A stretch of 64,000 nucleotides of DNA, taken from Rickettsiales bacterium (GTDB taxonomy: Bacteria > Pseudomonadota > Alphaproteobacteria > Rs-D84). How positions within the stretch are numbered: the first letter of the stretch is position 1; every line of letters begins with the position of its first letter. The stretch is taken from the NCBI GenBank assembly GCA_031283185.1, contig JAITCH010000010.1, forward strand, positions 63,237-127,236, given 5' to 3'. This document shows positions 2,898 to 64,000 of this stretch, piece by piece. The position numbers and the translations under genes were made by a program. Under the pieces are notes generated by a model, which saw nothing but the letters and a program-made list of their open reading frames with translations, did not search any database and was not told where the DNA came from.

Positions 2898-2970
2898 GCA
2901 GGTGGGGGTTTCCTGCCCCACACTCATCTCCCCTTGTCATTCCCGCGAAGGCGGGAATCTCAAATTGTTA
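2898..2970. repeat. composite repeat family B copy (degenerate G-rich hairpin + GTCATTCCCGCGAAGGCGGGAATCTCAAATTGTTA), overlapping the 3' end of the GIY-YIG gene
   Basis: Sequence match to 29117-29194 and 55347-55453. Confidence 0.75.
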
Positions 2971-3278
2971 ATTTCCGCTGTTATTCCGGGGCATATATCT
3001 TCGGACAAATCATTCCATTCGGGATTGCTTTCTATTACCAATCGCTGTTTCCAACTTTTATTCCATTTCTTCAACTGCTTTTCCCGCACAACGGCGTGTT
3101 CCATATCTCCTTGAACTTCATACCAAACCAACTTATCCAGGTTGTATCTGTCGGAATGGCTATCCTTGAAAAACCCCGTCTTGTGTTGGTAAACGCGATT
3201 AACCAGGTCGGAGGTTGATCCGATATAGGTTCTGCCCATCCAACAATTAGTCATAATATATACGCAAGGCTGTTTCAT
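2937..3278 (-). CDS. GIY-YIG nuclease family protein (YhbQ/UPF0213-like)
   Basis: Starts VYIMTN...GRTYIGSTSDLVNRVYQHK...KLVWYE, which fits the GIY-YIG core. The last ~10 codons (NNLRFPPSRE) are encoded by the repeat at 2936-2970. Confidence 0.7.
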   Translation of the reverse strand: MKQPCVYIMTNCWMGRTYIGSTSDLVNRVYQHKTGFFKDSHSDRYNLDKLVWYEVQGDMEHAVVREKQLKKWNKSWKQRLVIESNPEWNDLSEDICPGITAEINNLRFPPSRE

Positions 3279-3325
3279 AGGACAAGGCTATCAAATTTTA
3301 TAAGTCCGCATCAAAGGATTTTTTA

Positions 3326-3406
3326 CAATTTGAGATTCCCGCCTTCGCGGGAATGACGACACTTCGTGTCGTTTCTAGCGGGTGGGGGTCGGGAGATCCC
3401 CACCCG
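3326..3406. repeat. composite repeat family B copy in inverted orientation (CAATTTGAGATTCCCGCCTTCGCGGGAATGAC ... GCGGGTGGGGGTCGGGAGATCCCCACCCGC)
   Basis: Reverse complement of the family B consensus. Together with 2898-2970 it brackets the GIY-YIG gene. Confidence 0.75.
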
Positions 3407-5036: not shown

Positions 5037-5122
5037 GGGGGTGTTGACCCGGACATAAGGTTTTCTGTGGATTTTTATCCTTTGACAAATAATAAAAGTG
5101 GGTGGAAAAGTTATAAAAAGTT

Positions 5123-5249
5123 CTCCTCCATTGGAGGAGTCCCCCACGAAGTGGGGGGAGGTGGTTTAGCCACATTAAGGTAAGTAGTGCGGGGATATTT
5201 GGTTAAACCACCCCGCGCCTACGGCGCACCCCTCCACCGGAGGGGAATT
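5123..5249. repeat. composite structured repeat copy A: hairpin, hairpin, inverted-repeat core GGTGGTTTAGCCAC...GTGGTTAAACCACC, hairpin, hairpin
   Basis: CTCCTCCATTGGAGGAG, TCCCCCACGAAGTGGGGGGA, the core, CGCGCCTACGGCGCA and CCCCTCCACCGGAGGGG. The architecture is the same as the copy at 35317-35454. Confidence 0.8.
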
Positions 5250-5300
5250 GAGCCCTGAAATGGGCGGGATGGAAAACAGACCTTATGGGGTTTGTTCGGT

Positions 5301-10078: not shown

Positions 10079-10453
10079 ATGTCAACAGAACAATCATATT
10101 TTTTACCGATTTCGGATGTATCGAAAAAGATGGGGCTTCCATCGCATGTATTGCGTTTTTGGGAAAAGCAATTTCCGAATTTTGTTAAACCGACGACTGG
10201 CGCGGGCGGGCGGCGTTATTATAGAACTACGGATATAGAAAATTTGGAACGGATAAAGGATTTGCTTTATCGGCAGGGCTATACTATACGCGGTGTGAAG
10301 AAATTGTTGGCATCTGGTGGGGGTGCGATGGTTGGGGCTGCGGCCGGCGGGGCAGAGCCTGCGCCAAGGTCAATTGTTGACGGCGGAGTTTCAGAGCAGG
10401 TTGTAGAGTTATTGTTATCTGCGCGCCTTGCCCTCAAAACCGCAAATGAATAA
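10079..10453 (+). CDS. MerR-family transcriptional regulator
   Basis: ISDVSKKMGLPSHVLRFWEKQF is a MerR-type HTH. A regulator downstream of ihfA is the alphaproteobacterial arrangement. Confidence 0.8.
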   Translation: MSTEQSYFLPISDVSKKMGLPSHVLRFWEKQFPNFVKPTTGAGGRRYYRTTDIENLERIKDLLYRQGYTIRGVKKLLASGGGAMVGAAAGGAEPAPRSIVDGGVSEQVVELLLSARLALKTANE

Positions 10454-10461
10454 AAAATAAG

Positions 10462-10504
10462 ATTCCCCTCCAAGGTGGAGGGGTGCCCGAAGGGCGGGGT
10501 GGTT
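10462..10504. repeat. terminal half-copy of the composite repeat (AATTCCCCTCCAAGGTGGAGGGGTG + GC hairpin + GGGGTGGTT)
   Basis: Matches the ends of the copies at 5123-5249 and 35317-35454. Confidence 0.75.
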
Positions 10505-26450: not shown

Positions 26451-26482
26451 GTTATTCCGGGGCTTGACCCCGGAATCTTGTC
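26451..26482. repeat. REP/RPE-like 32-bp palindromic element (GTTATTCCGGGGCTTGACCCCGGAATCTTGTC)
   Basis: One of six copies of the GTCATYCCSGGGCTTGACCCSGGRATCTYG family. Confidence 0.8.
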
Positions 26483-26498
26483 ATAATATAATTCCCAT

Positions 26499-29116: not shown

Positions 29117-29194
29117 GCGGGGCGGGGTCTCCTGACCCCGCCCCGCAATCGTCATCCCCGCGAAGGCGCGGATCTCAAATTGTATAATGCAAAT
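29117..29194. repeat. composite repeat, family B: G-rich hairpin GCGGGGCGGGGTCTCCTGACCCCGCCCCGC + GTCATCCCCGCGAAGGCGCGGATCTCAAATTGTATAATGCAAAT
   Basis: Same architecture as the copies at 2898-2970, 3326-3406 (inverted) and 55347-55453. Confidence 0.8.
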
Positions 29195-35301: not shown

Positions 35302-35316
35302 TTTTATCATCCATAA

Positions 35317-35454
35317 GTTCCCCTTCATTGAAGGGGTGTCGCCGCAGGCGACGGGGTAGTTTAGCCACATTTTGGCAAGCAGTGCGGTTATATGTGGTTA
35401 AACCACCCCGGCACTTCGTGCCACCCCTCCAACGGAGGGGAATTTTATTTTTAT
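35317..35454. repeat. composite structured repeat copy B (same architecture as 5123-5249, with compensatory stem changes)
   Basis: CCCCTTCATTGAAGGGG, GTCGCCGCAGGCGAC, the core GGGTAGTTTAGCCAC...GTGGTTAAACCACC, GGCACTTCGTGCC and CCCCTCCAACGGAGGGG. Confidence 0.8.
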
Positions 35455-39572: not shown

Positions 39573-39583
39573 TAAAATAAAAT

Positions 39584-39615
39584 GTCATCCCGGGGCTTGA
39601 CCCCGGGATCTTGCC
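39584..39615. repeat. REP/RPE-like element GTCATCCCGGGGCTTGACCCCGGGATCTTGCC, 12 nt after the stop codon
   Basis: Member of the family described at 26451-26482. Confidence 0.8.
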
Positions 39616-40528: not shown

Positions 40529-40560
40529 GTCATCCCGGGGCTTGACCCCGGGATCTTGCC
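40529..40560. repeat. REP/RPE-like element, 10 nt after the rpsD stop
   Basis: Identical to the copy at 39584-39615. Confidence 0.8.
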
Positions 40561-41766: not shown

Positions 41767-42612
41767 TTGCGGCGTAGTGTCCGCGACATTTTAATTTTTG
41801 GCATAATAAATTATATAAAATTTTTTCGCGCGGCTAAACGCGCAGAACACAAACTTAAATTTCCACATAAACTTTCCATTGTTGCCATCGCAAAAAACGA
41901 AGGCGCAAATTTTCAGGAATGGATTGAATATCATCGCATTGTTGGCGTTGAAAAATTTTATATTTACGATAATGAATCCACTGACGATACGAAAAAAGTT
42001 CTTGAACCATATATAAAATCCGGCGTGGTGGAATACACTTATTTCCCTGGGCAGAAAATGCAAAAGCCTGCTTATGCAGATGGGCTTAAAAAATGCAGAT
42101 TTGATACGAAGTGGGTCGCGCTCATAGACCTAGATGAATTTATTGTCCCGATAAAGCACGAAAAAATTTCCGATTATTTGGACGAACTTCCCGATGATGT
42201 GGGATGCGTTATGGTACCTTGGATTACATATGGATCCAGCGGACATCAAGCCAGACCAATCGGATTGGTTATTGAAAGTTATAAAATGCGTAGTGCGGAT
42301 TTCAAGTTGGGAAATCTCGCGGCGGACAAGCAGTGTAAAAGCATTATTAATCCTCGGTTTGCTATTCGATTGAACGGCGTGCATATAGGCAGCAGCATAT
42401 TGAAAAAGATACGAAGTGATGTGTTAAGGTGCAATCATTATTACAGCAAATCGTGGGAAGAATTCGCTGCTCGCCGATCTAGGGGTGATGTTAGGTTTGG
42501 CAATAATTATGCCCAAGCGACTTTCAACAAAGATTTATTTGATCGTATAAACAGGGATAATTTTTATGACCCAATTATGGATAAATACATCCCGCAATTA
42601 AAAACCATTTGA
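41767..42612 (+). CDS. glycosyltransferase family 92 (DUF23)
   Basis: The AKNE...EWIEYH...FYIYDNESTDDT motif. The TTG start is uncertain. Confidence 0.6.
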   Translation: MRRSVRDILIFGIINYIKFFRAAKRAEHKLKFPHKLSIVAIAKNEGANFQEWIEYHRIVGVEKFYIYDNESTDDTKKVLEPYIKSGVVEYTYFPGQKMQKPAYADGLKKCRFDTKWVALIDLDEFIVPIKHEKISDYLDELPDDVGCVMVPWITYGSSGHQARPIGLVIESYKMRSADFKLGNLAADKQCKSIINPRFAIRLNGVHIGSSILKKIRSDVLRCNHYYSKSWEEFAARRSRGDVRFGNNYAQATFNKDLFDRINRDNFYDPIMDKYIPQLKTI

Positions 42613-42644: not shown

Positions 42645-43421
42645 ATGAAAATAATAGTCAGTTTAACATCATTCCCGGCGGCGATTCCGTTTGCGGTGAA
42701 CGCGATAAAAAGCATTATGAACCAAAGCGTTCTGCCGGATAAAATCGTTTTGTATCTGACGGCGGAACAATTCCCCGATAAAAAACTTCCAGCAGAATTG
42801 TTGAATTTAGTAGAATCATCTTCGCTGTTCGAAATCCGTTTTTATTCAGAAAATATTCGTTCATATACGAAACTGATTCCCGCGCTGAAAGACTTCCCGG
42901 ATGACATAATCATAACGATTGATGACGATATAAATTATCCGCGTGATTTGATAAAGAAATTGTTGCGCGCGCATAAAAAATATCCGAATGCGATTGTGGC
43001 GCATCGGGTTCGCCGAGTGCGATGGGATGCTGATGGAAATTTGCTGCCTTATAAGAAATGGGGTCGCTATATGCGATTAAGGTATTATTTATGGTCGTGC
43101 CGTCCACGCCTTTGCAATTTGTTGACTGGTGTGGGTGGGGTGTTGTATCCGCCGCACTCCTTGCCGCCCGAGGCGAGCGATGCCGGAACATTTATGAAAC
43201 TTGCGCCGACTACGGACGACATATGGTTTTGGTTGATGGCGGCCAAGACAGGAACCGGGACTGCCCCGGTCAGATGGGGATTTGTAAATCAACTGGGTGA
43301 TATGCACAAGCCAAGGGATATAACATTAAGTTCGGTTAATATAAAAAGCGCGGTGGATGTGAACCGAGAGAATGCCGAAAAGATAATCGCACATTATAAA
43401 ATCAAAACCCCTATCAAATAA
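42645..43421 (+). CDS. putative glycosyltransferase (DxD-containing, capsule/LPS biosynthesis-like)
   Basis: IVSLTSFP near the N-terminus, and a TIDDD motif. Confidence 0.5.
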   Translation: MKIIVSLTSFPAAIPFAVNAIKSIMNQSVLPDKIVLYLTAEQFPDKKLPAELLNLVESSSLFEIRFYSENIRSYTKLIPALKDFPDDIIITIDDDINYPRDLIKKLLRAHKKYPNAIVAHRVRRVRWDADGNLLPYKKWGRYMRLRYYLWSCRPRLCNLLTGVGGVLYPPHSLPPEASDAGTFMKLAPTTDDIWFWLMAAKTGTGTAPVRWGFVNQLGDMHKPRDITLSSVNIKSAVDVNRENAEKIIAHYKIKTPIK

Positions 43422-43471
43422 AATTCCCCTCCAAGGTGGAGGGGTGGTGGCGTAGCCGCCGGGGTGGTTGG
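43422..43471. repeat. terminal half-copy of the composite repeat
   Basis: AATTCCCCTCCAAGGTGGAGGGGTG-GTGGCGTAGCCGCC-GGGGTGGTTGG. Confidence 0.75.
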
Positions 43472-44322: not shown

Positions 44323-44562
44323 CTAAAAATGTTTTTTAGAAAATAGCCTGCCATTTCCAGTTTTCAAATATGCCTCAAATTTTTCTGCCTTGTCTCTATT
44401 TTCAAATGCAAAATAGTTTTTAATTTTCCAAGGCTTGAATTTGTTTGTATGTATTGAGCATCCTTTGTTATGTTCATTAAGTCGTTTTTTCAGGTCGTCA
44501 GTTTGTCCCACATAAAATCTGTCTGGATTGCTTATGCTTTGTAAGATATATACATAAAACAT
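44323..44562 (-). CDS. GIY-YIG nuclease family protein (80 aa)
   Basis: MFYVYILQS...RFYVGQTDDLKKRLNEHN. Confidence 0.7.
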   Translation of the reverse strand: MFYVYILQSISNPDRFYVGQTDDLKKRLNEHNKGCSIHTNKFKPWKIKNYFAFENRDKAEKFEAYLKTGNGRLFSKKHF

Positions 44563-44673
44563 ATTTAATCCCTAATTGCCCGCTTTCGTCCTTCGGACGA
44601 TAGCGCGGCATCCGCTTCTCTAACACTCCGCCGCGATTGTGCCCAATCGCGCCGTAGCGTAAGCGAAGGCGGA

Positions 44674-44747: not shown

Positions 44748-44794
44748 AGGTTTGGGAATAATACCCCCGCGCTTGCATATTTGCAACATAAAAA

Positions 44795-44843
44795 AATTCC
44801 CCGCCAAGGGTGGCGGGGTGTCTGCGAAGCAGACGGTGTGGTT
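44795..44843. repeat. terminal half-copy of the composite repeat
   Basis: AATTCCCCGCCAAGGGTGGCGGGGTG-TCTGCGAAGCAGAC-GGTGTGGTTCG. Confidence 0.7.
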
Positions 44844-47402: not shown

Positions 47403-47490
47403 CGGAAATCGGTTTGGGTGTGCGGGGGCTTTTGTGCCCCCGCCCTTTTTTTATTTGACATTCAATTGATTCCATTACAAGGTATGGCGC

Positions 47491-47544
47491 AAATTCTCCT
47501 CCTGTGGAGGAGTCCGGGCGAAGCCCGGGAGGTGGGTCTACCAT
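47491..47544. repeat. 5'-half copy of the composite repeat (subfamily with GGTGGGTCTACC core), directly upstream of the DUF559 gene
   Basis: AAATTCTCCTCCTGTGGAGGAGTCCGGGCGAAGCCCGGGAGGTGGGTCTACCAT, identical over 56 bp to 48002-48057. Confidence 0.8.
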
Positions 47545-47978: not shown

Positions 47979-48001
47979 GATTTGGTAGTGTGGCACTGAC
48001 T

Positions 48002-48128
48002 AAATTCTCCTCCTGTGGAGGAGTCCGGGCGAAGCCCGGGAGGTGGGTCTACCATATCTATGAAACGCAAGCCTAACCCGGAGACCCACCCCGTCCGCTT
48101 CGCGTCCACCCCTCCACCGGAGGGGAAT
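48002..48128. repeat. full composite repeat copy (GGTGGGTCT...AGACCCACC core subfamily), immediately downstream of the DUF559 gene
   Basis: Its 5' half is identical to 47491-47544. The 3' half ends CCCCTCCACCGGAGGGGAATT, as in the other copies. Confidence 0.8.
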
Positions 48129-53923: not shown

Positions 53924-55342
53924 ATGCTTAAATTTGCTAAAATTTTTGGTGCTGTGTGTGGGGTGCTTGTTGTTGCTGGTGGCGCGAATGCTGCTGCGAC
54001 AGAGGCTGATTCTTCGGAACAGGTTATACAGACCACGGGCGGCGCGCAGAATATCGTAATTAGGGTCAAGGTTCGTTCAAAGTCGTCAGAATCTGGCACG
54101 GCGACCACTGCGGGCACTGCGGCGGCATCGTCAAAGCCTGTGCGTCGTAAGTTGAAATCTGGACCAGATAAATGGATTTATGAAAAGCCGAAACCGGTAG
54201 AGGTAAAGCAGGATGTGATAATTGACGGCAAGAATTCGGCAAAGAATTATGAATATGATTTAGAGCCGATTGATTGGGAGGATGACGAACAGGAATTGCC
54301 ACCTTCTCCAAAGCCGAGGGCAGTGGGCGAATGGCGGACGATAAGTGTAGATACGAATTTGGCGAATCCGTTTTTCCAACCACAGCAGGGCAGATTTACA
54401 TTTGATATAGATGCGAGACAGACAAATCATTCATTCAAATTCAAGGTTAAGGATGCTTATACGCCTAGTGTAGTGTATCCAGCGGGCGCTTCTAGTGTGA
54501 ATTTGGAAGGTAAAAAGTTTGGTTTTGATAATACTCAATCTCAGTATTTGGGACGAATTACATATGGTATTACAGATGCGTTAGAGATAAATGGAACGGT
54601 CGCTGGTTATGATCAGAGGTTTGTGTATCAAAATCGTTCGTTTGCTCTTGATTCAACCTTGGCGTTGGCAAATCCGCCGCATGATCTTACGAATGCTGGC
54701 AGTGGGTTGGAATCATGGGGGCTTGGTGTTGCGTGGCGCGTATATGATTATAACGAAGTTTTGTTCCAGGTGCGCGGTGAATACAGGCAGTTGCAGTATG
54801 AAAAAGCATCCGAGGTTCATCTTGGTGTGCAGGGCGGTATCGTTAATGGGCGCAGCACATTTTATGGACGATTGGGTCTGTATTTGTGGAATAATGAACT
54901 GGATGGATATGGATATGGGTTTGGATATGGGGCTACGGATTTTCCAGAAAACTTGTGGGAAAAGGTGTTGTTTGAAACTGACAACAAGCATCCGATTTAT
55001 GTGGAGGGGACAGCCGGTATCTTTACTGCGTTGAACGATAGTGTGTCGCTGGATGTCAATACCAGTTTGGCAGATTTAAGTTGGCGTAGTGTTTGGAGCA
55101 TTGGCAGTCAGTTGGCGTTCCAGCCTGTGGATGCATTTATGTTTATGCTATACGGGAGTTATAATCTGTATGATAGTTCCGCTGGTGTCAGCACTTCTCC
55201 CGATGATAATCAGTTAGTGTTATGGTCAAATATGTCTCCGCAGTATGGTTCTGACCGGGTTGGTTTCCGTCCTGTGAGCGGCATCAATGTTTCCGCCCCG
55301 CGCGAATTCACCTTCGGAGCCGGAATAAAGGTCTTGTTCTAA
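53924..55342 (+). CDS. hypothetical outer-membrane protein (472 aa, porin-like, C-terminal ...KVLF)
   Basis: Signal peptide and a C-terminal Phe. Confidence 0.5.
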   Translation: MLKFAKIFGAVCGVLVVAGGANAAATEADSSEQVIQTTGGAQNIVIRVKVRSKSSESGTATTAGTAAASSKPVRRKLKSGPDKWIYEKPKPVEVKQDVIIDGKNSAKNYEYDLEPIDWEDDEQELPPSPKPRAVGEWRTISVDTNLANPFFQPQQGRFTFDIDARQTNHSFKFKVKDAYTPSVVYPAGASSVNLEGKKFGFDNTQSQYLGRITYGITDALEINGTVAGYDQRFVYQNRSFALDSTLALANPPHDLTNAGSGLESWGLGVAWRVYDYNEVLFQVRGEYRQLQYEKASEVHLGVQGGIVNGRSTFYGRLGLYLWNNELDGYGYGFGYGATDFPENLWEKVLFETDNKHPIYVEGTAGIFTALNDSVSLDVNTSLADLSWRSVWSIGSQLAFQPVDAFMFMLYGSYNLYDSSAGVSTSPDDNQLVLWSNMSPQYGSDRVGFRPVSGINVSAPREFTFGAGIKVLF

Positions 55343-55346
55343 TAGC

Positions 55347-55453
55347 GGCGGGTGGGGGTCTCCCGACCCCCACCCGAACATTTTACAAAAATTGCTTTTG
55401 CAATTTTTGTCATTCCCGCGAAGGCGGGAATCTCAGATTGTAAAATGCAAAAT
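55347..55453. repeat. composite repeat family B copy: GGGTGGGGGTCTCCCGACCCCCACCC hairpin, a 10-bp-arm palindrome spacer, and GTCATTCCCGCGAAGGCGGGAATCTCAGATTGTAAAATGCAAAAT
   Basis: Matches 2898-2970, 3326-3406 and 29117-29194. The repeat supplies the ATG/5' region of the downstream OMP gene. Confidence 0.8.
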
Positions 55454-56841: not shown

Positions 56842-58392
56842 TTACGCTCCGAACTTACCCCTATTAATCGATCTGTATGTCAATGCCTCGGCAATATCTT
56901 CCATAATGATATTTTCTGCGCCACGCAAATCTGCAATCGTCCGTGCGATTCGTAATACGCGATTGTATCCGCGCGCTGACAGCGACATTTTTTCCGCCGC
57001 TAAATTTATAAAGTCGCGCAACTCTTGCGTCAATGCGGTGGCGGTTTCCAACTCGCGCCCGTCCAGCCGGGCATTCAGAATTTCGCGCCCGAAAAGTTTC
57101 ACGCTTCGCGCGATCTGCCGTTCCCGCGCGGCGCAGGTGCGTGCCCGAATCGCTGCGGATGTTTCCTCGGGCGCGCTTTCTGTCCGCCCCAGTTCCCAAG
57201 GGTTCACCGAATCAACTTCAACATGCAAATCGATTCGATCCATTAGTGGTCCTGAAATTTTATTTTGATACGCCTCGGCACAGCGCGGTGCCTTGGAGCA
57301 CGATAATTTTGCATTCCCCAGGTGTCCGCACGGGCAGGGATTCATTGCCGCAATAAGTTGAAATTGCGCGGGGTATGTTGCATTGCGTTTCGCGCGCGAA
57401 ATGGTAATGCCGCCGGTTTCCATTGGCTGCCGTAAAATCTCTAATGCGCCGCGCTGAAATTCGGGCAGTTCGTCCAAAAATAACACGCCATTGTGCGCCA
57501 AAGAAATCTCGCCGGGCAGCGCGTTGGAACCGCCGCCGGACAGCGCGATTTGACTTGCGGTGTGGTGGACGGCGCGGAACGGACGGGCATTCATCAACCC
57601 GCCGCCTTTGAGGAGCCCCGCGACAGAATAGATGACCGAAGTATCTAAAACCTCGCGTTGCGTCATCGGCGGCAATATAGAGCCGAGGCGCGATGCGAGC
57701 ATTGATTTACCCGCGCCCGGAGGGCCGACCATTAACATTGCGTGCCCGCCTGCCGCGGCGATTTCCAATGCCCGTTTTGCTGCCGCTTGCCCCTTTACTT
57801 CGGACATATCTGCCGAATCAGTTCCCCTCCGGTGGAGGGGTGCCGCCAAAGGCGGCGGGGTGGTCTCGGGCGCAGGCATTGGTTCATTATGTCTAAACCA
57901 ATTCACCAAATCCAAAACATTTCCGGCGGCCAGGATATTTTTATTTCCCGCCCACTTGGCCTCGTCCATATTGTCAACGGGGCAAATGATGCCCAACCCT
58001 TGGTCGTTTGCCCAAATACTGGCGGGCAGGACGCCATTTGCCCGCAGGATTGTGCCGTCAAGGCCGACTTCGCCCATAATGACATATTTTGCCAGTTCTT
58101 CTTCTGGCAATACGCCCATCGCGGCGAGAACGGCGCATAGAATCGGCAGGTCAAAGTGCGCACCGGTCTTGGTCAGGTCGGCGGGCGCAAGGTTCACTAC
58201 GACTTTCTTTGCGGGTATGGACAGGTTCATTGCCTTGAAGGCGGATTCAATGCGGGTGGATGCTTCTTTGACGGCGCGGTCGGCGAGCCCAACGATGAAG
58301 AATTTAACCATTCCGTGGGATATTTGCGCCTGTGCTTCGACGCGGGTTATTTCCAGTCCATTAAAAACGATAGTATTTATATTCGCCGTCAT
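56842..58392 (-). CDS. comM: YifB/ComM-family Mg-chelatase-like AAA+ ATPase, carrying an in-frame half-repeat insertion in the inter-domain linker
   Basis: Lon-like N-terminal domain, Walker A GPPGAGKS, and a C-terminal ChlI-like domain. The repeat at 57821-57864 encodes PETTPPPLAAPLHRRG. Confidence 0.9.
   Translation of the reverse strand: MTANINTIVFNGLEITRVEAQAQISHGMVKFFIVGLADRAVKEASTRIESAFKAMNLSIPAKKVVVNLAPADLTKTGAHFDLPILCAVLAAMGVLPEEELAKYVIMGEVGLDGTILRANGVLPASIWANDQGLGIICPVDNMDEAKWAGNKNILAAGNVLDLVNWFRHNEPMPAPETTPPPLAAPLHRRGTDSADMSEVKGQAAAKRALEIAAAGGHAMLMVGPPGAGKSMLASRLGSILPPMTQREVLDTSVIYSVAGLLKGGGLMNARPFRAVHHTASQIALSGGGSNALPGEISLAHNGVLFLDELPEFQRGALEILRQPMETGGITISRAKRNATYPAQFQLIAAMNPCPCGHLGNAKLSCSKAPRCAEAYQNKISGPLMDRIDLHVEVDSVNPWELGRTESAPEETSAAIRARTCAARERQIARSVKLFGREILNARLDGRELETATALTQELRDFINLAAEKMSLSARGYNRVLRIARTIADLRGAENIIMEDIAEALTYRSINRGKFGA
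57821..57864. repeat. terminal half-copy of the composite repeat, inserted in-frame within comM
   Basis: GTTCCCCTCCGGTGGAGGGGTG-CCGCCAAAGGCGGC-GGGGTGGTCT on the plus strand. It is read through on the minus strand. Confidence 0.8.
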
Positions 58393-58513: not shown

Positions 58514-60010
58514 ATGCAAAAATTTATATTTGGAAGTTTGGCGGTTCTGTTCAGTGCATCTGCTGCGTCTGCGAATACATATTATAATCCTGGGAATGTG
58601 GGTCAGTATAACCAAGGTGGATTTATAGGGCAGGGTAATGCCAGTCAGCAGTATCAACCTCGCGGCGGCGGTTATCAGGGAAATTATCAAGGCGGTGGCT
58701 ATCAGGGTGGCGGCTATCAGCCGCAACAGAATCAGCAATTTCGTCCTTATGGACAGGGCGCGCCCGGCGCGTATGGCCAGCAGAATCGCGGATACGGATA
58801 TGGTCAACAGGGGCAGCAGTCTCGCGGACAGAAACCGCAGGCGAGCAAGGCGTTCGAGTTTGATGTGTTTGCGGGATATGAGGGCGCAGATTTTGGATTC
58901 AATATGAATAGTGCTGGGTCAGAGATTAGCTTTAATAATATCACTTGGCAAAAGATTGGCGCGGCGGGCAAGGGGACATTTGACTTGGGCGGCACGGCTG
59001 TGGAGATAAAGGGCGGATTGGAACTTGGCACGCAGGGCAAGTCCGGCACCGTTACGGACGATGATATGCAGAATGGAGGAATATGGAGTGGCTTTGTATA
59101 TTTCTCAAATGGCGCGCAAGATCCTTCGCTTTTGAATTGGTCTAGTCTGGGCGGCGATAACGAATGGGTCAATTTTGGATCCACAGAATTGGCGTATGGC
59201 GTGGGCGAGCAGGGCAAAGGAAGTTCTCTTGGATTTTTTGCATCTGTTGGTCTGGCGAATGGTTGGACATTGGCGGATAATATAACTTTAAAGCCATCGG
59301 TTGGTTATAGATATGAAAGTTATAAATTGATTGGACAGAATGTTATAACGACATCGGTTCTTGCAATTTTGGGCGAAGGATATGACGAGCAGGGTGTTCC
59401 ATATATGATGGGGGATTTGCAGGCGGTTGCTGATTTCTGTGGGAACGCGTCAAATGCTTGTGATGTTATGGTTGTTTTTGATAAGGATGACATACCTCAT
59501 TTTGTCGGATTTGTTATGGGGCTAGACGATTATGACGAGCCGTGGTTTTTAACTTTGGCTTCGGCGCACGCATTGGATGGCATTACGCATAAGTATGATG
59601 TTGTTTGGGCGGGACCATTTATCGCAGCGGACATAGAGGCGAAGTTGATGCCAAAGATGACGGCGAATATGCGGATTGAAATAGGTTTCCCTGGATATTC
59701 GTCCGAGGCGGATCAGCCGTTCCGTAGTGATTTGGCGCATCCAGTGGCGTTTAGGGATTCTGCGGGAATGTTCAGCGGGATGCATTATGGGTTGATGTTG
59801 GGCTATACGGCGGCGATTACGGACGGGATGTCGGTTGGGTTAGATTGGAAATGGGATTATTATGAAGTTAAGGGTGCGGCGAGCGAGAGTTTCTATGCGC
59901 GTGGTTATCCTGCATATGAGGAACATGGTCCAAGCTTTAAGATTGATAATGAAGTGAATGCCCGGTATAAGCAGTCTGGCCTCCGCGCCACCCTCAAAAT
60001 GAAATTCTAA
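58514..60010 (+). CDS. outer-membrane protein with an N-terminal Q/G/Y-rich low-complexity region (GGYQG repeats)
   Basis: Signal peptide and a ~90-aa QGY-rich region, followed by a predicted beta-barrel ending ...LKMKF. Confidence 0.55.
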   Translation: MQKFIFGSLAVLFSASAASANTYYNPGNVGQYNQGGFIGQGNASQQYQPRGGGYQGNYQGGGYQGGGYQPQQNQQFRPYGQGAPGAYGQQNRGYGYGQQGQQSRGQKPQASKAFEFDVFAGYEGADFGFNMNSAGSEISFNNITWQKIGAAGKGTFDLGGTAVEIKGGLELGTQGKSGTVTDDDMQNGGIWSGFVYFSNGAQDPSLLNWSSLGGDNEWVNFGSTELAYGVGEQGKGSSLGFFASVGLANGWTLADNITLKPSVGYRYESYKLIGQNVITTSVLAILGEGYDEQGVPYMMGDLQAVADFCGNASNACDVMVVFDKDDIPHFVGFVMGLDDYDEPWFLTLASAHALDGITHKYDVVWAGPFIAADIEAKLMPKMTANMRIEIGFPGYSSEADQPFRSDLAHPVAFRDSAGMFSGMHYGLMLGYTAAITDGMSVGLDWKWDYYEVKGAASESFYARGYPAYEEHGPSFKIDNEVNARYKQSGLRATLKMKF

Positions 60011-60014
60011 TTAA

Positions 60015-60044
60015 AATCCCCCTCCATTGGAGGGGAATTTTCTT
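60015..60044 (+). terminator. intrinsic terminator CCCCCTCCATTGGAGGGG followed by a T-rich tract
   Basis: Hairpin directly after the stop. Confidence 0.65.
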
Positions 60045-60101
60045 CACTTTACACCCGACATTCTTTGTTCTATAATACCATGTCAAAGACAGAGGAATAC
60101 A

Positions 60102-60746
60102 ATGAAGTTCAAGTTATATATTATTATATTATGTGCATTTTTTGCAACTCCAACACTCGGGGCATCAGAACTTTCAGCCTCTCGCCAGGTTGAAATAACC
60201 GCGGCAAATTCGGTGGATGCAAAGAATCGCGCTGTGAATGATGCGCGCCAATCGTTGGTCAAAGAATTACTGCGCCGTAGTTCGTCTTCGGATGCCTCGC
60301 GGACAGAGGCCGCGCTGGAACGCCTGACCGATTCGGAAACTTCGGCACTTGTGCGATCGATGAGCATAGAGAACGAAAAGCGGTCGTCAAAGTCGTATGC
60401 GGCAAAGATAACGATAAATTTGGATGCCGAGGCGATGGCAGATTGGTTCGAGAATAGGAACTTGTCGTTTGCGCCGATTTTAGACGCGCAGGTTGGCTGG
60501 ATGCCGGTTTATGTAAATGTGCCTAATGGGCTGAACCAGTGGATATGGTTTAATGCCAAGTTAAGGGATGCCAAGGTTCAGAATCGCGGGGGGTTTCAAG
60601 TATTGCAGATTGGCGGCGGTGTTATTTCCGGCCGGATTTCATCTGATAACGCGCATAAGTTTGCAAGTAATGTTCGTTCCATTGGCGCGAATGTTCAGAA
60701 TGGCGGCACCCTTCGCATTTCATTACCACACGAATCAATGCAATAA
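60102..60746 (+). CDS. hypothetical secreted protein (214 aa)
   Basis: Signal peptide MKFKLYIIILCAFFATPTLGA. Confidence 0.45.
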   Translation: MKFKLYIIILCAFFATPTLGASELSASRQVEITAANSVDAKNRAVNDARQSLVKELLRRSSSSDASRTEAALERLTDSETSALVRSMSIENEKRSSKSYAAKITINLDAEAMADWFENRNLSFAPILDAQVGWMPVYVNVPNGLNQWIWFNAKLRDAKVQNRGGFQVLQIGGGVISGRISSDNAHKFASNVRSIGANVQNGGTLRISLPHESMQ

Positions 60747-60747
60747 T

Positions 60748-60779
60748 GTCATTCCGGGGCTTGACCCCGGAATCTTGCC
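60748..60779. repeat. REP/RPE-like element, 2 nt after the stop codon
   Basis: GTCATTCCGGGGCTTGACCCCGGAATCTTGCC. Confidence 0.8.
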
Positions 60780-61812: not shown

Positions 61813-61844
61813 GTCATCCCCCGGCTTGACCGGGGGATCTCGGC
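61813..61844. repeat. REP/RPE-like element (GTCATCCCCCGGCTTGACCGGGGGATCTCGGC) between rpsB and tsf
   Basis: A family member with compensatory stem changes. Confidence 0.8.
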
Positions 61845-62762: not shown

Positions 62763-62972
62763 ATGAAAAAGGGAATTCATCCAGAATATCATACGATAAA
62801 GGTTACGGCGGTAGACGGCAGCGTTATTGAAATGCACTCGACCGTTGCAAAGGATATAACACTTGATACGGATCCGTCGAATCATCCGGCTTGGACTGGG
62901 CAGCGGGCATCGGTTGAGCGTGGTCAGCGCGTGAATAAGTTCAAGGCGAAATTCGGCGACTTTAAGTTATAA
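62763..62972 (+). CDS. rpmE: 50S ribosomal protein L31
   Basis: Starts MKKGIHPEYH. Confidence 0.9.
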   Translation: MKKGIHPEYHTIKVTAVDGSVIEMHSTVAKDITLDTDPSNHPAWTGQRASVERGQRVNKFKAKFGDFKL

Positions 62973-62978
62973 TCAAAT

Positions 62979-63025
62979 AATTCCCCGCCAATGGTGGCGG
63001 GGTGGCACGAAGTGCCGGGGTGGTT
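62979..63025. repeat. terminal half-copy of the composite repeat
   Basis: AATTCCCCGCCAATGGTGGCGGGGTG-GCACGAAGTGCC-GGGGTGGTTAG. Confidence 0.75.
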
Positions 63026-63030
63026 AGAAA

Positions 63031-63783
63031 ATGCTTACCGAAAAAGAACATCGTATAAAGGGCTCTGGCGAGTTAAACGAAATGTTTAACGCGCTAAGCC
63101 GGACTGCGACTGGAATCCAGCGCGACTTTGGCGAAATTGAAAGCCTGCAAAGTTCTATTAAGGGCGCGGCGGATTTCGTGGCCAAGGCGATAGAACGGGT
63201 CGAGGCGATGATATTGTCGGACTTGCAGTTAATTCGTCCGCAGGCTGGTATTACGACCACGAACGAATTCCGCGAAGGCGATGGTGTGGACGAATTTGTG
63301 TTGGGATTTTCCGGCGCGGGAAATTTCGTGCGCGGGAATCCGCATTTTGCGATTTCTTTGGCACTTAAACACGAAGGCGAAACTGCGATTGGCTTGATTT
63401 ATTCGCCGATTGACGACAGATTGTATTTCGCGGAAAAGGGCAATGGCGCATTTATATTCGCTCCGTTTCATAGTCAACGGATGCGCGCTTCAACCCGCAC
63501 CGAACCTACTGACCTTACAATTTATAAGTCATTCCCCGGCTTGACCGGGGAATCTCGGCCGCTAATATCGCAAATCCCAACCTCCAACCTTCGCATTTCC
63601 GGCTGCCCTGCGCTTGACCTGGCATATGTTGCATCGGGCAAGGCGGACATTGCGATTTTGGCGAATGACGGCATTTCCGAAATCTGTGCTGGTCAGTTAT
63701 TGGTCGAAGAGGCGAATGGCTTTGTTGATTTCACCAACGGCGACATCCTTGCGGCATCTCTTTCCATAAAATCCTTTATATAA
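63031..63783 (+). CDS. inositol monophosphatase (SuhB/IMPase)-family protein with a degenerate metal-binding motif and an in-frame REP-like insertion
   Basis: C-terminal ALDLAYVASGKAD and central PHFAISLAL match the IMPase fold. However, the DPIDGT motif is replaced by GFSGAG, and the repeat at 63528-63560 encodes SFPGLTGESRP. Confidence 0.6.
   Translation: MLTEKEHRIKGSGELNEMFNALSRTATGIQRDFGEIESLQSSIKGAADFVAKAIERVEAMILSDLQLIRPQAGITTTNEFREGDGVDEFVLGFSGAGNFVRGNPHFAISLALKHEGETAIGLIYSPIDDRLYFAEKGNGAFIFAPFHSQRMRASTRTEPTDLTIYKSFPGLTGESRPLISQIPTSNLRISGCPALDLAYVASGKADIAILANDGISEICAGQLLVEEANGFVDFTNGDILAASLSIKSFI
63528..63560. repeat. REP/RPE-like element inserted in-frame within the IMPase-family gene
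   Basis: GTCATTCCCCGGCTTGACCGGGGAATCTCGGCC. Confidence 0.8.
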
Positions 63784-63794
63784 TAGGATTATTA

Positions 63795-64000
63795 ATGTTA
63801 AAAAAGTATTTTGGTTTGTTGGCTCCGTTGTTGGTGTTTTATCATCGCATTCGTGCGATATTAAAGTTGGGCATTCTCAGGTATTTGCGCGTGCGATTTT
63901 TGGGCGCGGACGGCATTGAAAAATTTCCATATTTTTTATCAGTGGTTGCTTGTGCCAAAAACGAAGGCCACGACTTTGCGGAATGGATTGAATATCATCG
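63795..64000 (+). CDS. glycosyltransferase family 92 paralog (3' end outside window)
   Basis: ...VACAKNEGHDFAEWIEYH matches the GT92 N-terminal motif of the 41767..42612 protein. Confidence 0.5.
   Translation, partial: MLKKYFGLLAPLLVFYHRIRAILKLGILRYLRVRFLGADGIEKFPYFLSVVACAKNEGHDFAEWIEYH

Follow-up and report, generated by a model that had tools for sequence, protein, structure and literature searches.

Among the closest known relatives of the repeats considered here are hairpins of Neisseria, together with the small nucleases that act on them. Chenal et al. (2025, Nat Commun; PMC11893778) defined the Neisseria NTS, CGTCATTCCCGCGMAVGCGGGAATCYRG, as an oriented extension of the dRS3 repeat. 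The same study defined a degenerate search string for Ssn-related motifs (SRMs), HGTCWYN(0-2)YYVSBRHN(0-5)WNVSBRGN(0-2)RNCYNB, and a family, Ssn, of ~94-aa GIY-YIG nucleases. First, Ssn binds the hairpin only as single-stranded DNA and cuts a few nucleotides upstream of it; it acts on neither double-stranded DNA nor RNA, nor on the reverse strand. Second, for the Neisseria enzyme, the C after the palindrome is critical to binding, and the three nucleotides before the palindrome are critical to cleavage. In Neisseria, activity is abolished by changes to the stem sequence that leave the hairpin intact; the enzyme tolerates loop extensions, and there is some cross-specificity among Ssn homologues. 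Third, an SRM lies near 71% of ssn homologues, and on both sides of 42% of them, in an SRM-ssn-SRM layout that resembles an insertion sequence. Rickettsia, Wolbachia, and similar symbionts are rich in SRMs, and only 2% of NTS copies in N. meningitidis lie inside genes (all PMC11893778). Here, we describe six hairpins in a 64,000-nt stretch of DNA, referred to as “the window”, from an uncultured alphaproteobacterium labelled Rickettsiales bacterium (assembly GCA_031283185.1, contig JAITCH010000010.1, positions 63,237 to 127,236). We consider it highly probable (~0.85) that these six repeats are SRMs, i.e., hairpins of the NTS/dRS3 super-family that co-occur with, and are recognized by, small GIY-YIG Ssn nucleases. 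The Ssn/SRM system was published in 2025, and the window is a further instance of it, not a new kind of terminator or system.

The six copies conform to GTCATYCC-SSGG-CTTGA-CCSS-GGRATCTYG, a sequence expected ~0 times by chance in 64 kb. All six are on the plus strand, and a scan of the window with a looser core, CCSSGGCTTGACCSSGG, recovers the identical six sites. Each copy has zero to two mismatches to the consensus given in an earlier note on this DNA; 100 dinucleotide shuffles yielded zero such sites. Every copy has a 9-bp stem (ATYCCSSGG/CCSSGGRAT) and a 5-nt loop, CTTGA (CUUGA as RNA), with a calculated folding energy of −16 to −21 kcal/mol per copy as RNA and ~−10 to −11 kcal/mol as DNA on either strand (z −3 to −4.5). 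Four versions of the stem occur among the six copies, every one perfectly paired, and copies 2 and 3 are identical across 37 nt (family D1). When all 10 SRM-type copies in the window are aligned, including four that are described below, four of the nine stem pairs have both partners changed, with pairing in 94% of cells; sliding the partner by one to three columns, as a control, reduces this to 41–61%.

Five of the six copies are intergenic. Copies 1 to 5 follow dnaK, an AMP-binding enzyme gene, rpsD, an unnamed open reading frame (ORF), and rpsB, with gaps from the stop codon to GTCAT of 61, 11, 9, 1, and 7 nt, respectively. Copies 3 and 5 are 17–21 nt before the next start codon, in gene pairs that are likely co-transcribed (rpsD-efp and rpsB-tsf). 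The earlier note had reported six copies, five of them shortly after stop codons, with covarying stems, and each of these observations holds for the sites in Table 1. Its description of the unit as a “32-bp palindrome” does not, since the unit is ~30–36 nt and asymmetric, and copy 1 carries GTT for GTC. Nor does the family stop at those six sites: four related copies, at 2936(+), 3357(−), 29151(+), and 55409(+), had been overlooked.

Table 1. Positions of SRM-type hairpins and associated genes in the 64-kb window
Feature	Position	Strand	Context
SRM hairpin copy 1 (GTTATTCCGGGGCTTGACCCCGGAATCTTG)	26451..26480	+	dnaK (ends 26389) to Stealth-family gene (starts 26499); 5' triplet GTT, not GTC
SRM hairpin copy 2	39584..39613	+	11 nt past AMP-binding (acyl-CoA ligase-like) stop; upstream of tRNA-His (39668)
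SRM hairpin copy 3	40529..40558	+	9 nt past rpsD stop; 17 nt before efp start
SRM hairpin copy 4	60748..60777	+	1 nt past stop of ORF 60027..60746; followed by −35-like cTTGCAtt upstream of rpsB
SRM hairpin copy 5	61813..61842	+	rpsB-tsf spacer
SRM hairpin copy 6	63528..63560	+	in frame within IMPase-like gene; with preceding G encodes SFPGLTGESRP
Host gene of copy 6, IMPase-fold protein (PF00459) without DPIDGT and WD motifs	63031..63783	+	
NTS-type SRM (GTCATTCCCGCGAAGGCGGGAATCTCAAATTGTAAA)	3322..3357	−	~45 nt upstream of ssn-like gene, on gene strand; left inverted repeat of cassette
NTS-type SRM	2936..2971	+	overlaps 3' end of ssn-like gene, inverted relative to upstream copy; right inverted repeat; dRS3 match
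ssn-like gene, single-domain GIY-YIG nuclease, 113 aa	2937..3278	−	PF01541, 3e-13
Solitary NTS-type SRM (GTCATCCCCGCGAAGGCGCGGATCTCAAATTGTATA)	29151..29186	+	adjoins GC-rich hairpin 29117–29145; upstream of tRNA-Ala
Solitary NTS-type SRM	55409..55444	+	adjoins GC-rich hairpin 55348–55376; between gene ending at 55342 and ATG at ~55467

Three observations place the six copies among the SRMs. First, five of them match the published search string (at 39583, 40528, 60747, 61812, and 63527), vs 0.14 matches per simulated window; copy 1 misses the string solely at GTC>GTT. Second, the copies are oriented hairpins with conserved, non-palindromic flanks: GTC is found on the 5' side in five of six copies, and a C lies directly 3' of the palindrome in all six. 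Third, hairpins of this family have ssn nearby in other genomes, usually between two copies; the six copies themselves have no adjacent ssn in the window. Based on the string match, the conserved flanks, and the ssn association, we assign them to the SRMs as a CTTGA-loop subfamily. At the gathering threshold, Rfam matched only tRNAs in this DNA, and at E≤1 on 60–64 kb it gave only sub-threshold chance hits. An exact-sequence literature search with the hairpin variants returned no match.

The CTTGA-type hairpin is widespread. We scanned one genome per species with the pattern ATYCCSSGGCTTGACCSSGGRAT, and the counts given here for other genomes refer to 140 copies among the matches listed by that scan. 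The pattern occurs at at least 120 loci in Alpha-, Gamma-, and Deltaproteobacteria, Treponema, Fibrobacter, Nitrospirota, Solirubrobacterales, and others, with ~1 chance hit expected from the degeneracy of the pattern; none of the loci listed overlaps the window. Two features outside the searched pattern are conserved: YGTC is found upstream in 132 of the 140 copies, and C directly downstream in nearly all. The pattern leaves three stem pairs free, and these are fully complementary in 139 of the 140 copies, which fall into eight stem types; 17.5 fully complementary copies would be expected. Because the out-of-pattern bases and the complementarity are both conserved, the repeat is an oriented, structure-constrained hairpin common to many phyla. 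This pattern of conservation indicates that the hairpin is under selection. The spread over phyla fits that published for SRMs (PMC11893778).

To find ssn homologues, we used tblastn and a profile search with the GIY-YIG protein of the window, over the fetched loci. Homologues are present at loci L049, L086, L093, L102, L157, and L236, as well as in the window, each with an SRM within 200 nt. In the usual layout, one SRM is upstream on the gene strand, 10–45 nt before the ATG, and an inverted SRM is at the stop codon. The flanking hairpins are of the CTTGA type in L049, L093, L102, and L157 and of a second, NTS type in the window and L236.

The NTS-type subfamily of the window, GTCATTCCCGCGAAGGCGGGAATCTCAAATTGT, was found by scanning for the outer frame GTCATYCC...GGRAT; its four copies are those noted above, the copy at 29151 being a variant. 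Two of them are the 36-nt inverted arms, 97% complementary, of a cassette (2936–3357) that brackets a minus-strand ORF with a PF01541 match. The match covers residues 4–77, with no extra domain. Conserved positions in the alignment of this ORF are VY(7), Y(18)IG, R28, H32, and E66, and its GIY, YIG, R, H, E, and N positions align with those of ssn homologues that are SRM-flanked elsewhere. The final ~12 codons are read-through into the downstream hairpin. Homologues of the protein are mostly 95–110 aa and are titled “GIY-YIG nuclease family proteins”; a comparison with solved structures gave no sequence match. The single GIY-YIG domain and the catalytic Tyr, Tyr, and Glu of the Ssn family are all present. 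Judged by its sequence, then, the region is an SRM-ssn-SRM cassette of the NTS-type subfamily.

Several further features were noted around this subfamily. The JGI gene call for the ssn-like gene, P0121 (100 aa, 87% of the query), apparently begins at an internal Met; this start would correspond to M14, which would remove the GIY strand. Every NTS-type SRM has a GC-rich hairpin, GCGGGTGGGGGTC-N4-GACCCCCACCCG, next to its outer (5') edge (3378–3406, 29117–29145, 55348–55376, and also ~2900–2925); this hairpin may mark a favored landing site or belong to a larger compound repeat. Another small GIY-YIG ORF, of the YhbQ/Slx1-like type, lies on the minus strand at 44326–44565 (79 aa, MFYVYILQS...YVGQTDDLKKRLNEHN), directly downstream of tRNA-Gln. 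It matches the Ssn profile weakly (27 bits) and has no SRM within 200 nt.

Comparison with relatives reveals sites with and without the hairpin. Two syntenic relatives, L121 and L123, with ~70% protein identity, have kept the gene order Pom-hyp-rpsB-tsf-rpmE-IMPase-like. The rpsB-tsf spacer is 58 nt in the window vs 1–2 nt in L121 and L123, and the window spacer consists of the hairpin, A/T-rich flanks, and a new Shine-Dalgarno-like AAAGGAA. In the hyp-rpsB spacer of the window, the hairpin is positioned exactly between the conserved stop codon and conserved promoter-like boxes (cTTGCAtt...TATAAAAT); the homologous spacers of L121 and L123 are without copy 4. Because the relatives have empty sites, the copies are insertions. 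Their placement after stop codons is largely due to the spacers being very short; two of these spacers consist mostly of the hairpin. No target-site duplications are evident at copies 3, 4, and 5. Copies 1, 5, and 6 share ATAA/GTCAT, and the putative empty site in L121 is TATAA/G.

How the copies spread is a matter on which we can offer a tentative proposal: SRMs may be non-autonomous mobile elements that Ssn moves via a single-stranded intermediate and that, in this lineage, land 3' of A/T-rich, TAA-like sites. If this were true, the SRM-ssn-SRM cassette would represent, in minimal form, a new enzymatic class of insertion sequence. A preference for TAA-like sites would explain both the pile-up of copies right after TAA stop codons and the in-frame entry of a 33-nt unit. 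Recent SRM insertion outside Neisseria would then have its first comparative evidence in the filled and empty sites.

Copy 6 reads K-SFPGLTGESRP within the ORF 63031..63783, and the reading frame bears out the earlier claim that this copy is translated as SFPGLTGESRP inside an intact IMPase-family ORF. The SFPGLTGESRP segment is missing from all 14 aligned homologues, in a region that forms a loop of variable length. The L121 codons at this site are AAT TAT AAG / GAG CTT TCG GGA ATC CCG, and those of the window are ATT TAT AAG (33 nt) CTA ATA TCG CAA ATC CCA. The comparison would fit a clean 33-nt insertion after TATAA/G, plus a separate length difference of six codons upstream, the alignment being ambiguous at this divergence. 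In the AlphaFold model of the IMPase-like protein, which is of high confidence overall (pLDDT 85, pTM 0.86), the insert (residues 167–177) lies between strands 164–166 and 187–189, and the weakest internal block, residues 171–180 (pLDDT 65), falls at the insert; the predicted structure fits a surface loop. The earlier note had raised the possibility that the ORF is in reality interrupted, for example through an assembly error. An assembly chimera at copy 6 is unlikely, because the parts of the ORF before and after the insert share one frame and align to a single set of homologues.

The same note had observed that the host protein has lost the DPIDGT motif, and had suggested that this loss is why the insertion is tolerated. 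The loss is confirmed; the proposed link is not. The sequence S-G-A-x-N-F (GFSGAGNF in the window, in place of DPIDGT) is invariant in 15 of 15 aligned homologues, 14 of which are without the insert, and WD is replaced by (A/S/P)E in all 15. Since SGAxNF is common to homologues without the insert, the motif loss is old, family-wide, and independent of the insertion. This SGAxNF, (A/S/P)E clade of IMPase-fold proteins (P0002–P0058) is conserved in gut-type Alphaproteobacteria, and its gene is downstream of rpsB-tsf-rpmE in all three genomes inspected. Its proteins probably lack catalytic activity, and a role like that of SuhB, in transcription or ribosome biology, would be a guess.

By analogy with the experimentally characterized Neisseria and Wolbachia systems, the following mechanism can be proposed. 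The GTCAT...GGRATC strand, when single-stranded, would fold into the 9-bp hairpin; Ssn would bind this hairpin together with the C just 3' of it, and would nick that strand, with the cut lying a few nucleotides to the 5' side of the conserved GTC. It would act on neither double-stranded DNA nor RNA, nor on the reverse strand. The six CTTGA-loop copies are solitary members of a second subfamily that flanks its own ssn genes in other genomes. They are insertions, accumulated at low-harm sites: right after stop codons in very short spacers, not in divergent promoter spacers, and once in a variable, predicted surface loop of the IMPase-fold protein, where a 33-nt unit preserves the frame. The sequences themselves show what the motif is, its association with ssn, the insertion polymorphism, and the intact host ORF; we infer both that an Ssn of this organism cuts these particular copies and how they have spread.

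There are several points that weigh against this interpretation. The 5' triplet of copy 1 is GTT and not GTC. The sense orientation of all six copies is also compatible with a role at the RNA level. A cognate ssn for the CTTGA subfamily was not found within the 64-kb window. Lastly, the window Ssn on its own has only 38–53% identity to Ssn proteins flanked by CTTGA-type hairpins, and it groups with the NTS-type-flanked homologue; given this grouping and the reported dependence of recognition on sequence, the six copies may not be substrates of the window Ssn. Ssn proteins flanked by CTTGA-type hairpins have 53–72% mutual identity. The window and L236 proteins, both flanked by NTS-type hairpins with a CTCAAATTGT tail, have 61% identity to each other and, taken together, 38–60% identity to the CTTGA-flanked proteins. 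These values, with the reported sequence dependence, suggest that the window Ssn is the partner of the NTS-type copies. For the six CTTGA copies, either a partner lies elsewhere in the genome or the copies are orphans.

If they are orphans, the six copies could be relics: their own nuclease gene would have been lost, nothing would act on them, and they would persist because they are harmless. We find this explanation doubtful, although more probable than the others considered below. As expected for relics, the sole ssn of the window has hairpins of the other subfamily at its flanks and encodes a protein that groups with NTS-type partners, the GTC triplet of copy 1 carries a substitution, and the copies vary at four stem positions. 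However, 64 kb is a limited view of a contig of ~190 kb and of a larger genome, and a second ssn could lie elsewhere in it. Furthermore, all six stems are still perfectly paired, the 37-nt identity of copies 2 and 3 suggests a recent duplication, and some cross-specificity of Ssn homologues has been reported (PMC11893778).

The earlier note had proposed that the repeats act as terminators or 3' stabilizers of transcripts. As RNA-level elements, the copies would be mRNA 3'-end hairpins that terminate transcription or shield transcripts from 3' exonucleases. The hairpins are stable as RNA, each of the five intergenic copies lies no more than 61 nt after a gene of the same orientation, and the tail of copy 4 is T-rich. 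Elsewhere, with gene orientations and spacers taken from crude longest-ORF calls, 139 of the listed genome copies show an excess of convergent over divergent spacers (27 vs 5) and, in co-directional spacers, of sense over antisense orientation (35 vs 15, p=0.007). A metagenome scan, the matches of which are mostly soil-type compound repeats of other organisms, gave 12 convergent vs 3 divergent spacers, but the sense bias is absent there (13 vs 13), and we regard this bias as no more than suggestive. An intrinsic terminator consists of a GC-rich stem-loop and a T/U tract, and the copies as a set do not have this structure: five of the six are without a U tract, with tails CTTGTCAT, CTTGCCTTTAA, CTTGCCTATAA, CTCGGCAAAA, and CTCGGCCGC that contain no T run, and a terminator scan of 58–64 kb, which covers copies 4–6, listed only copy 4. 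Ordinary terminators in the window are different, i.e., AAATCCCCTC-N4-GAGGGGATTTTT (family D4).

Other observations also argue against a function in RNA. Copies 3 and 5 are between genes that are likely co-transcribed, shortly before the next start codon, and copy 6 is within coding sequence. Because the relatives manage with a 1–2-nt rpsB-tsf spacer and no hairpin, the hairpin is dispensable at that site. A generic stabilizer would leave unexplained the unpaired, asymmetric 5' GTC and 3' C and the conservation of the loop across phyla, and the characterized partner protein binds single-stranded DNA and no RNA (PMC11893778). We therefore consider the terminator or stabilizer proposal unlikely. 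The hairpins may have an RNA-level side effect, which would leave the conserved flanks, the loop, and the link to a DNA nuclease unexplained.

With regard to strand, the GC skew is positive throughout the window, and nearly all copies are on the plus strand. A replication-strand bias was considered as a general rule and rejected, because the forward strand is G-rich in only 66 of the 140 listed copies elsewhere.

It is very unlikely that the hairpins are portable promoter parts in which the loop, cTTGACc, serves as the −35 box of the next gene downstream. Conservation of the loop does extend across phyla, and two copies have a suitable hexamer: TTGACC-17 nt-TATAAT in copy 1, 6 nt upstream of the Stealth-family ATG region, and TTGACC-16-TAATAT in copy 6, which is inside coding sequence. 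The remaining four copies, however, have no −10-like hexamer at the proper distance, the region contains 10 promoter-like sequences vs 8.5 in shuffled sequence, and divergent (promoter) spacers are avoided. Stem covariation would serve no purpose in a double-stranded promoter. For copy 1 itself, the loop and downstream flank (26464–26492) read as a sigma-70 promoter of near-consensus sequence, shortly before the Stealth-family gene (26499).

Some SRMs in other genomes depart from the simple hairpin. In L121 (1005–1040), and also in L122, an SRM has the flanks and stem of copy 6 and an inverted loop (GTCATTCCCCGG-TCAAG-CCGGGGAATCTCGGCCGC), which looks like a hairpin-loop flip. A shared tail, ATCYCGGCCGC, suggests that the unit reaches ~35 nt in this clade. 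In the upstream SRM of the nearest ssn homologue (L236, 3400–3475), the loop contains an insert of ~45 nt with an extra hairpin (GTCATCCTCGC...GGCGAGGATCTCAAATTGT). In many of the soil and peat metagenome contigs (L126–L235), a CTTGA-type SRM is followed, 10–20 nt on, by an inverted, diverged second hairpin (GATGGCCGGGTCAAGCCCGGCCAT). These pairs form REPIN-like doublets, many with nearly identical flanks (GATCACCCCNNATC upstream).

The window has other repeats. A second abundant family, of compound structure (AATTCCCCTCCAAGGTGGAGGGGTG-hairpin-GGGGTGGT), is found at 5117–5250, 10449–10500, 35314–35446, 43410–43468, 44783–44842, 47490–47544, 48001–48055, 57818–57864, 60003–60041, and 62972–63025. 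Some of these hairpins are terminator-like on one strand, and they also occur in the “wrong” orientation between co-directional genes (62983–63002). Two 54-nt copies (47491 and 48002), 511 nt apart, are 100% identical. In addition, an 80-nt direct repeat with 74% identity (41857–41936 and 63921–64000) is positioned at the starts of two ORFs, the second of which leaves the window; the two genes are probably paralogous.

The identification of these repeats adds an uncultured, symbiont-like alphaproteobacterium, known from a metagenome-assembled genome, to the carriers of the Ssn/SRM system. Within 64 kb, this organism offers two SRM subfamilies and one complete cassette, filled sites that can be set against empty ones, and a rare in-frame copy. 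We regard four aspects as modestly new: a CTTGA-loop subfamily that has an Ssn clade of its own, the joint presence of two subfamilies and one cassette in 64 kb, the comparison of filled and empty sites, and the in-frame copy. They bear on two questions of the 2025 paper, namely how SRMs spread (whether they are mobile, and whether Ssn moves them) and what SRMs do in bacteria that are not known to be naturally transformable. Given its conservation across phyla and its separate Ssn clade, the CTTGA subfamily is also a candidate source of a new specificity for tools that cut single-stranded DNA.

Lastly, we compare the six copies and their relatives with known repeat systems. Least probable of all is that the copies are classical REP elements moved by RAYT, an IS200/IS605-like Y1 transposase, or Rickettsia palindromic elements (RPEs): they are indeed short, dispersed, extragenic, imperfect palindromes, head-to-head doublets ~50 nt apart elsewhere (L007, L043, and L045) resemble REPINs, and in-frame insertion into a gene is an RPE hallmark, but their conserved 5' bases are YGTCAT and not the GTAG/GTGG of RAYT-type REPs, the flanked gene encodes a GIY-YIG nuclease and not a Y1 transposase (the window was not exhaustively scanned for RAYT), a literature search found no link between GIY-YIG and REP, and the unit, at 30–36 nt, is shorter than RPEs, which are reportedly roughly 100–150 nt. 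The label “REP/RPE-like” in the earlier note is therefore apt in a broad sense, for dispersed, structured, covarying repeats in the 3' regions of genes, and inapt as a statement of membership.

The resemblance to REP/REPIN-RAYT systems is one of organization: in both, short, multicopy, extragenic hairpins flank a small nuclease gene, occur as solitary copies and doublets, and are recognized as single-stranded hairpins. The enzymes differ in fold (GIY-YIG for Ssn vs HUH/Y1 for RAYT), the conserved flank differs (GTCAT vs GTAG), and mobilization by Ssn is only hypothetical. As with RPEs, a palindromic repeat is found in frame in an alphaproteobacterial gene, at a structurally tolerant site. The window unit, at 33 nt, comes with an identified partner family, and it is length, not sequence comparison, that sets it apart from RPEs. 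To our knowledge, RPEs have no known partner enzyme.

Similarity to dRS3 (ATTCCC-N8-GGGAAT) and to NTS is closer. The NTS-type copies at 2936, 3357, and 55409 read ATTCCC-GCGAAGGC-GGGAAT, an exact dRS3 match, and they agree with the Neisseria NTS (CGTCATTCCCGCGMAVGCGGGAATCYRG) at 26 of 28 positions. The outer frame, GTCATYCC...GGRATC, is common to the six CTTGA copies as well, but these have 11 nt, not 8, between ATTCCC and GGGAAT; strictly, they are not dRS3 repeats, having either N11 (copy 6) or a different outer triplet (ATCCC/ATTCCG). The 3' tail in the window is CTYG or CTCAAATTGT, vs CYRG in NTS, and the host is an uncultured alphaproteobacterium, not Neisseria.

The best agreement is with the SRM/Ssn system as a whole (PMC11893778). 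The window system, known from sequence alone, differs from that of Neisseria in having a 9-bp stem and a CTTGA loop in its six copies, as opposed to the 8-bp stem and GMAV-type loop of NTS. It also has a copy translated inside a conserved gene, a location that is rare for NTS in N. meningitidis (2% intragenic). Both consist of oriented hairpins with 5' (Y)GTCAT and 3' C that are mostly intergenic and are spread over many phyla, with enrichment in symbiont-like Alphaproteobacteria, and CTTGA hairpins, like other SRMs, flank genes for ~95-aa, single-domain GIY-YIG proteins on both sides, in inverted orientation.

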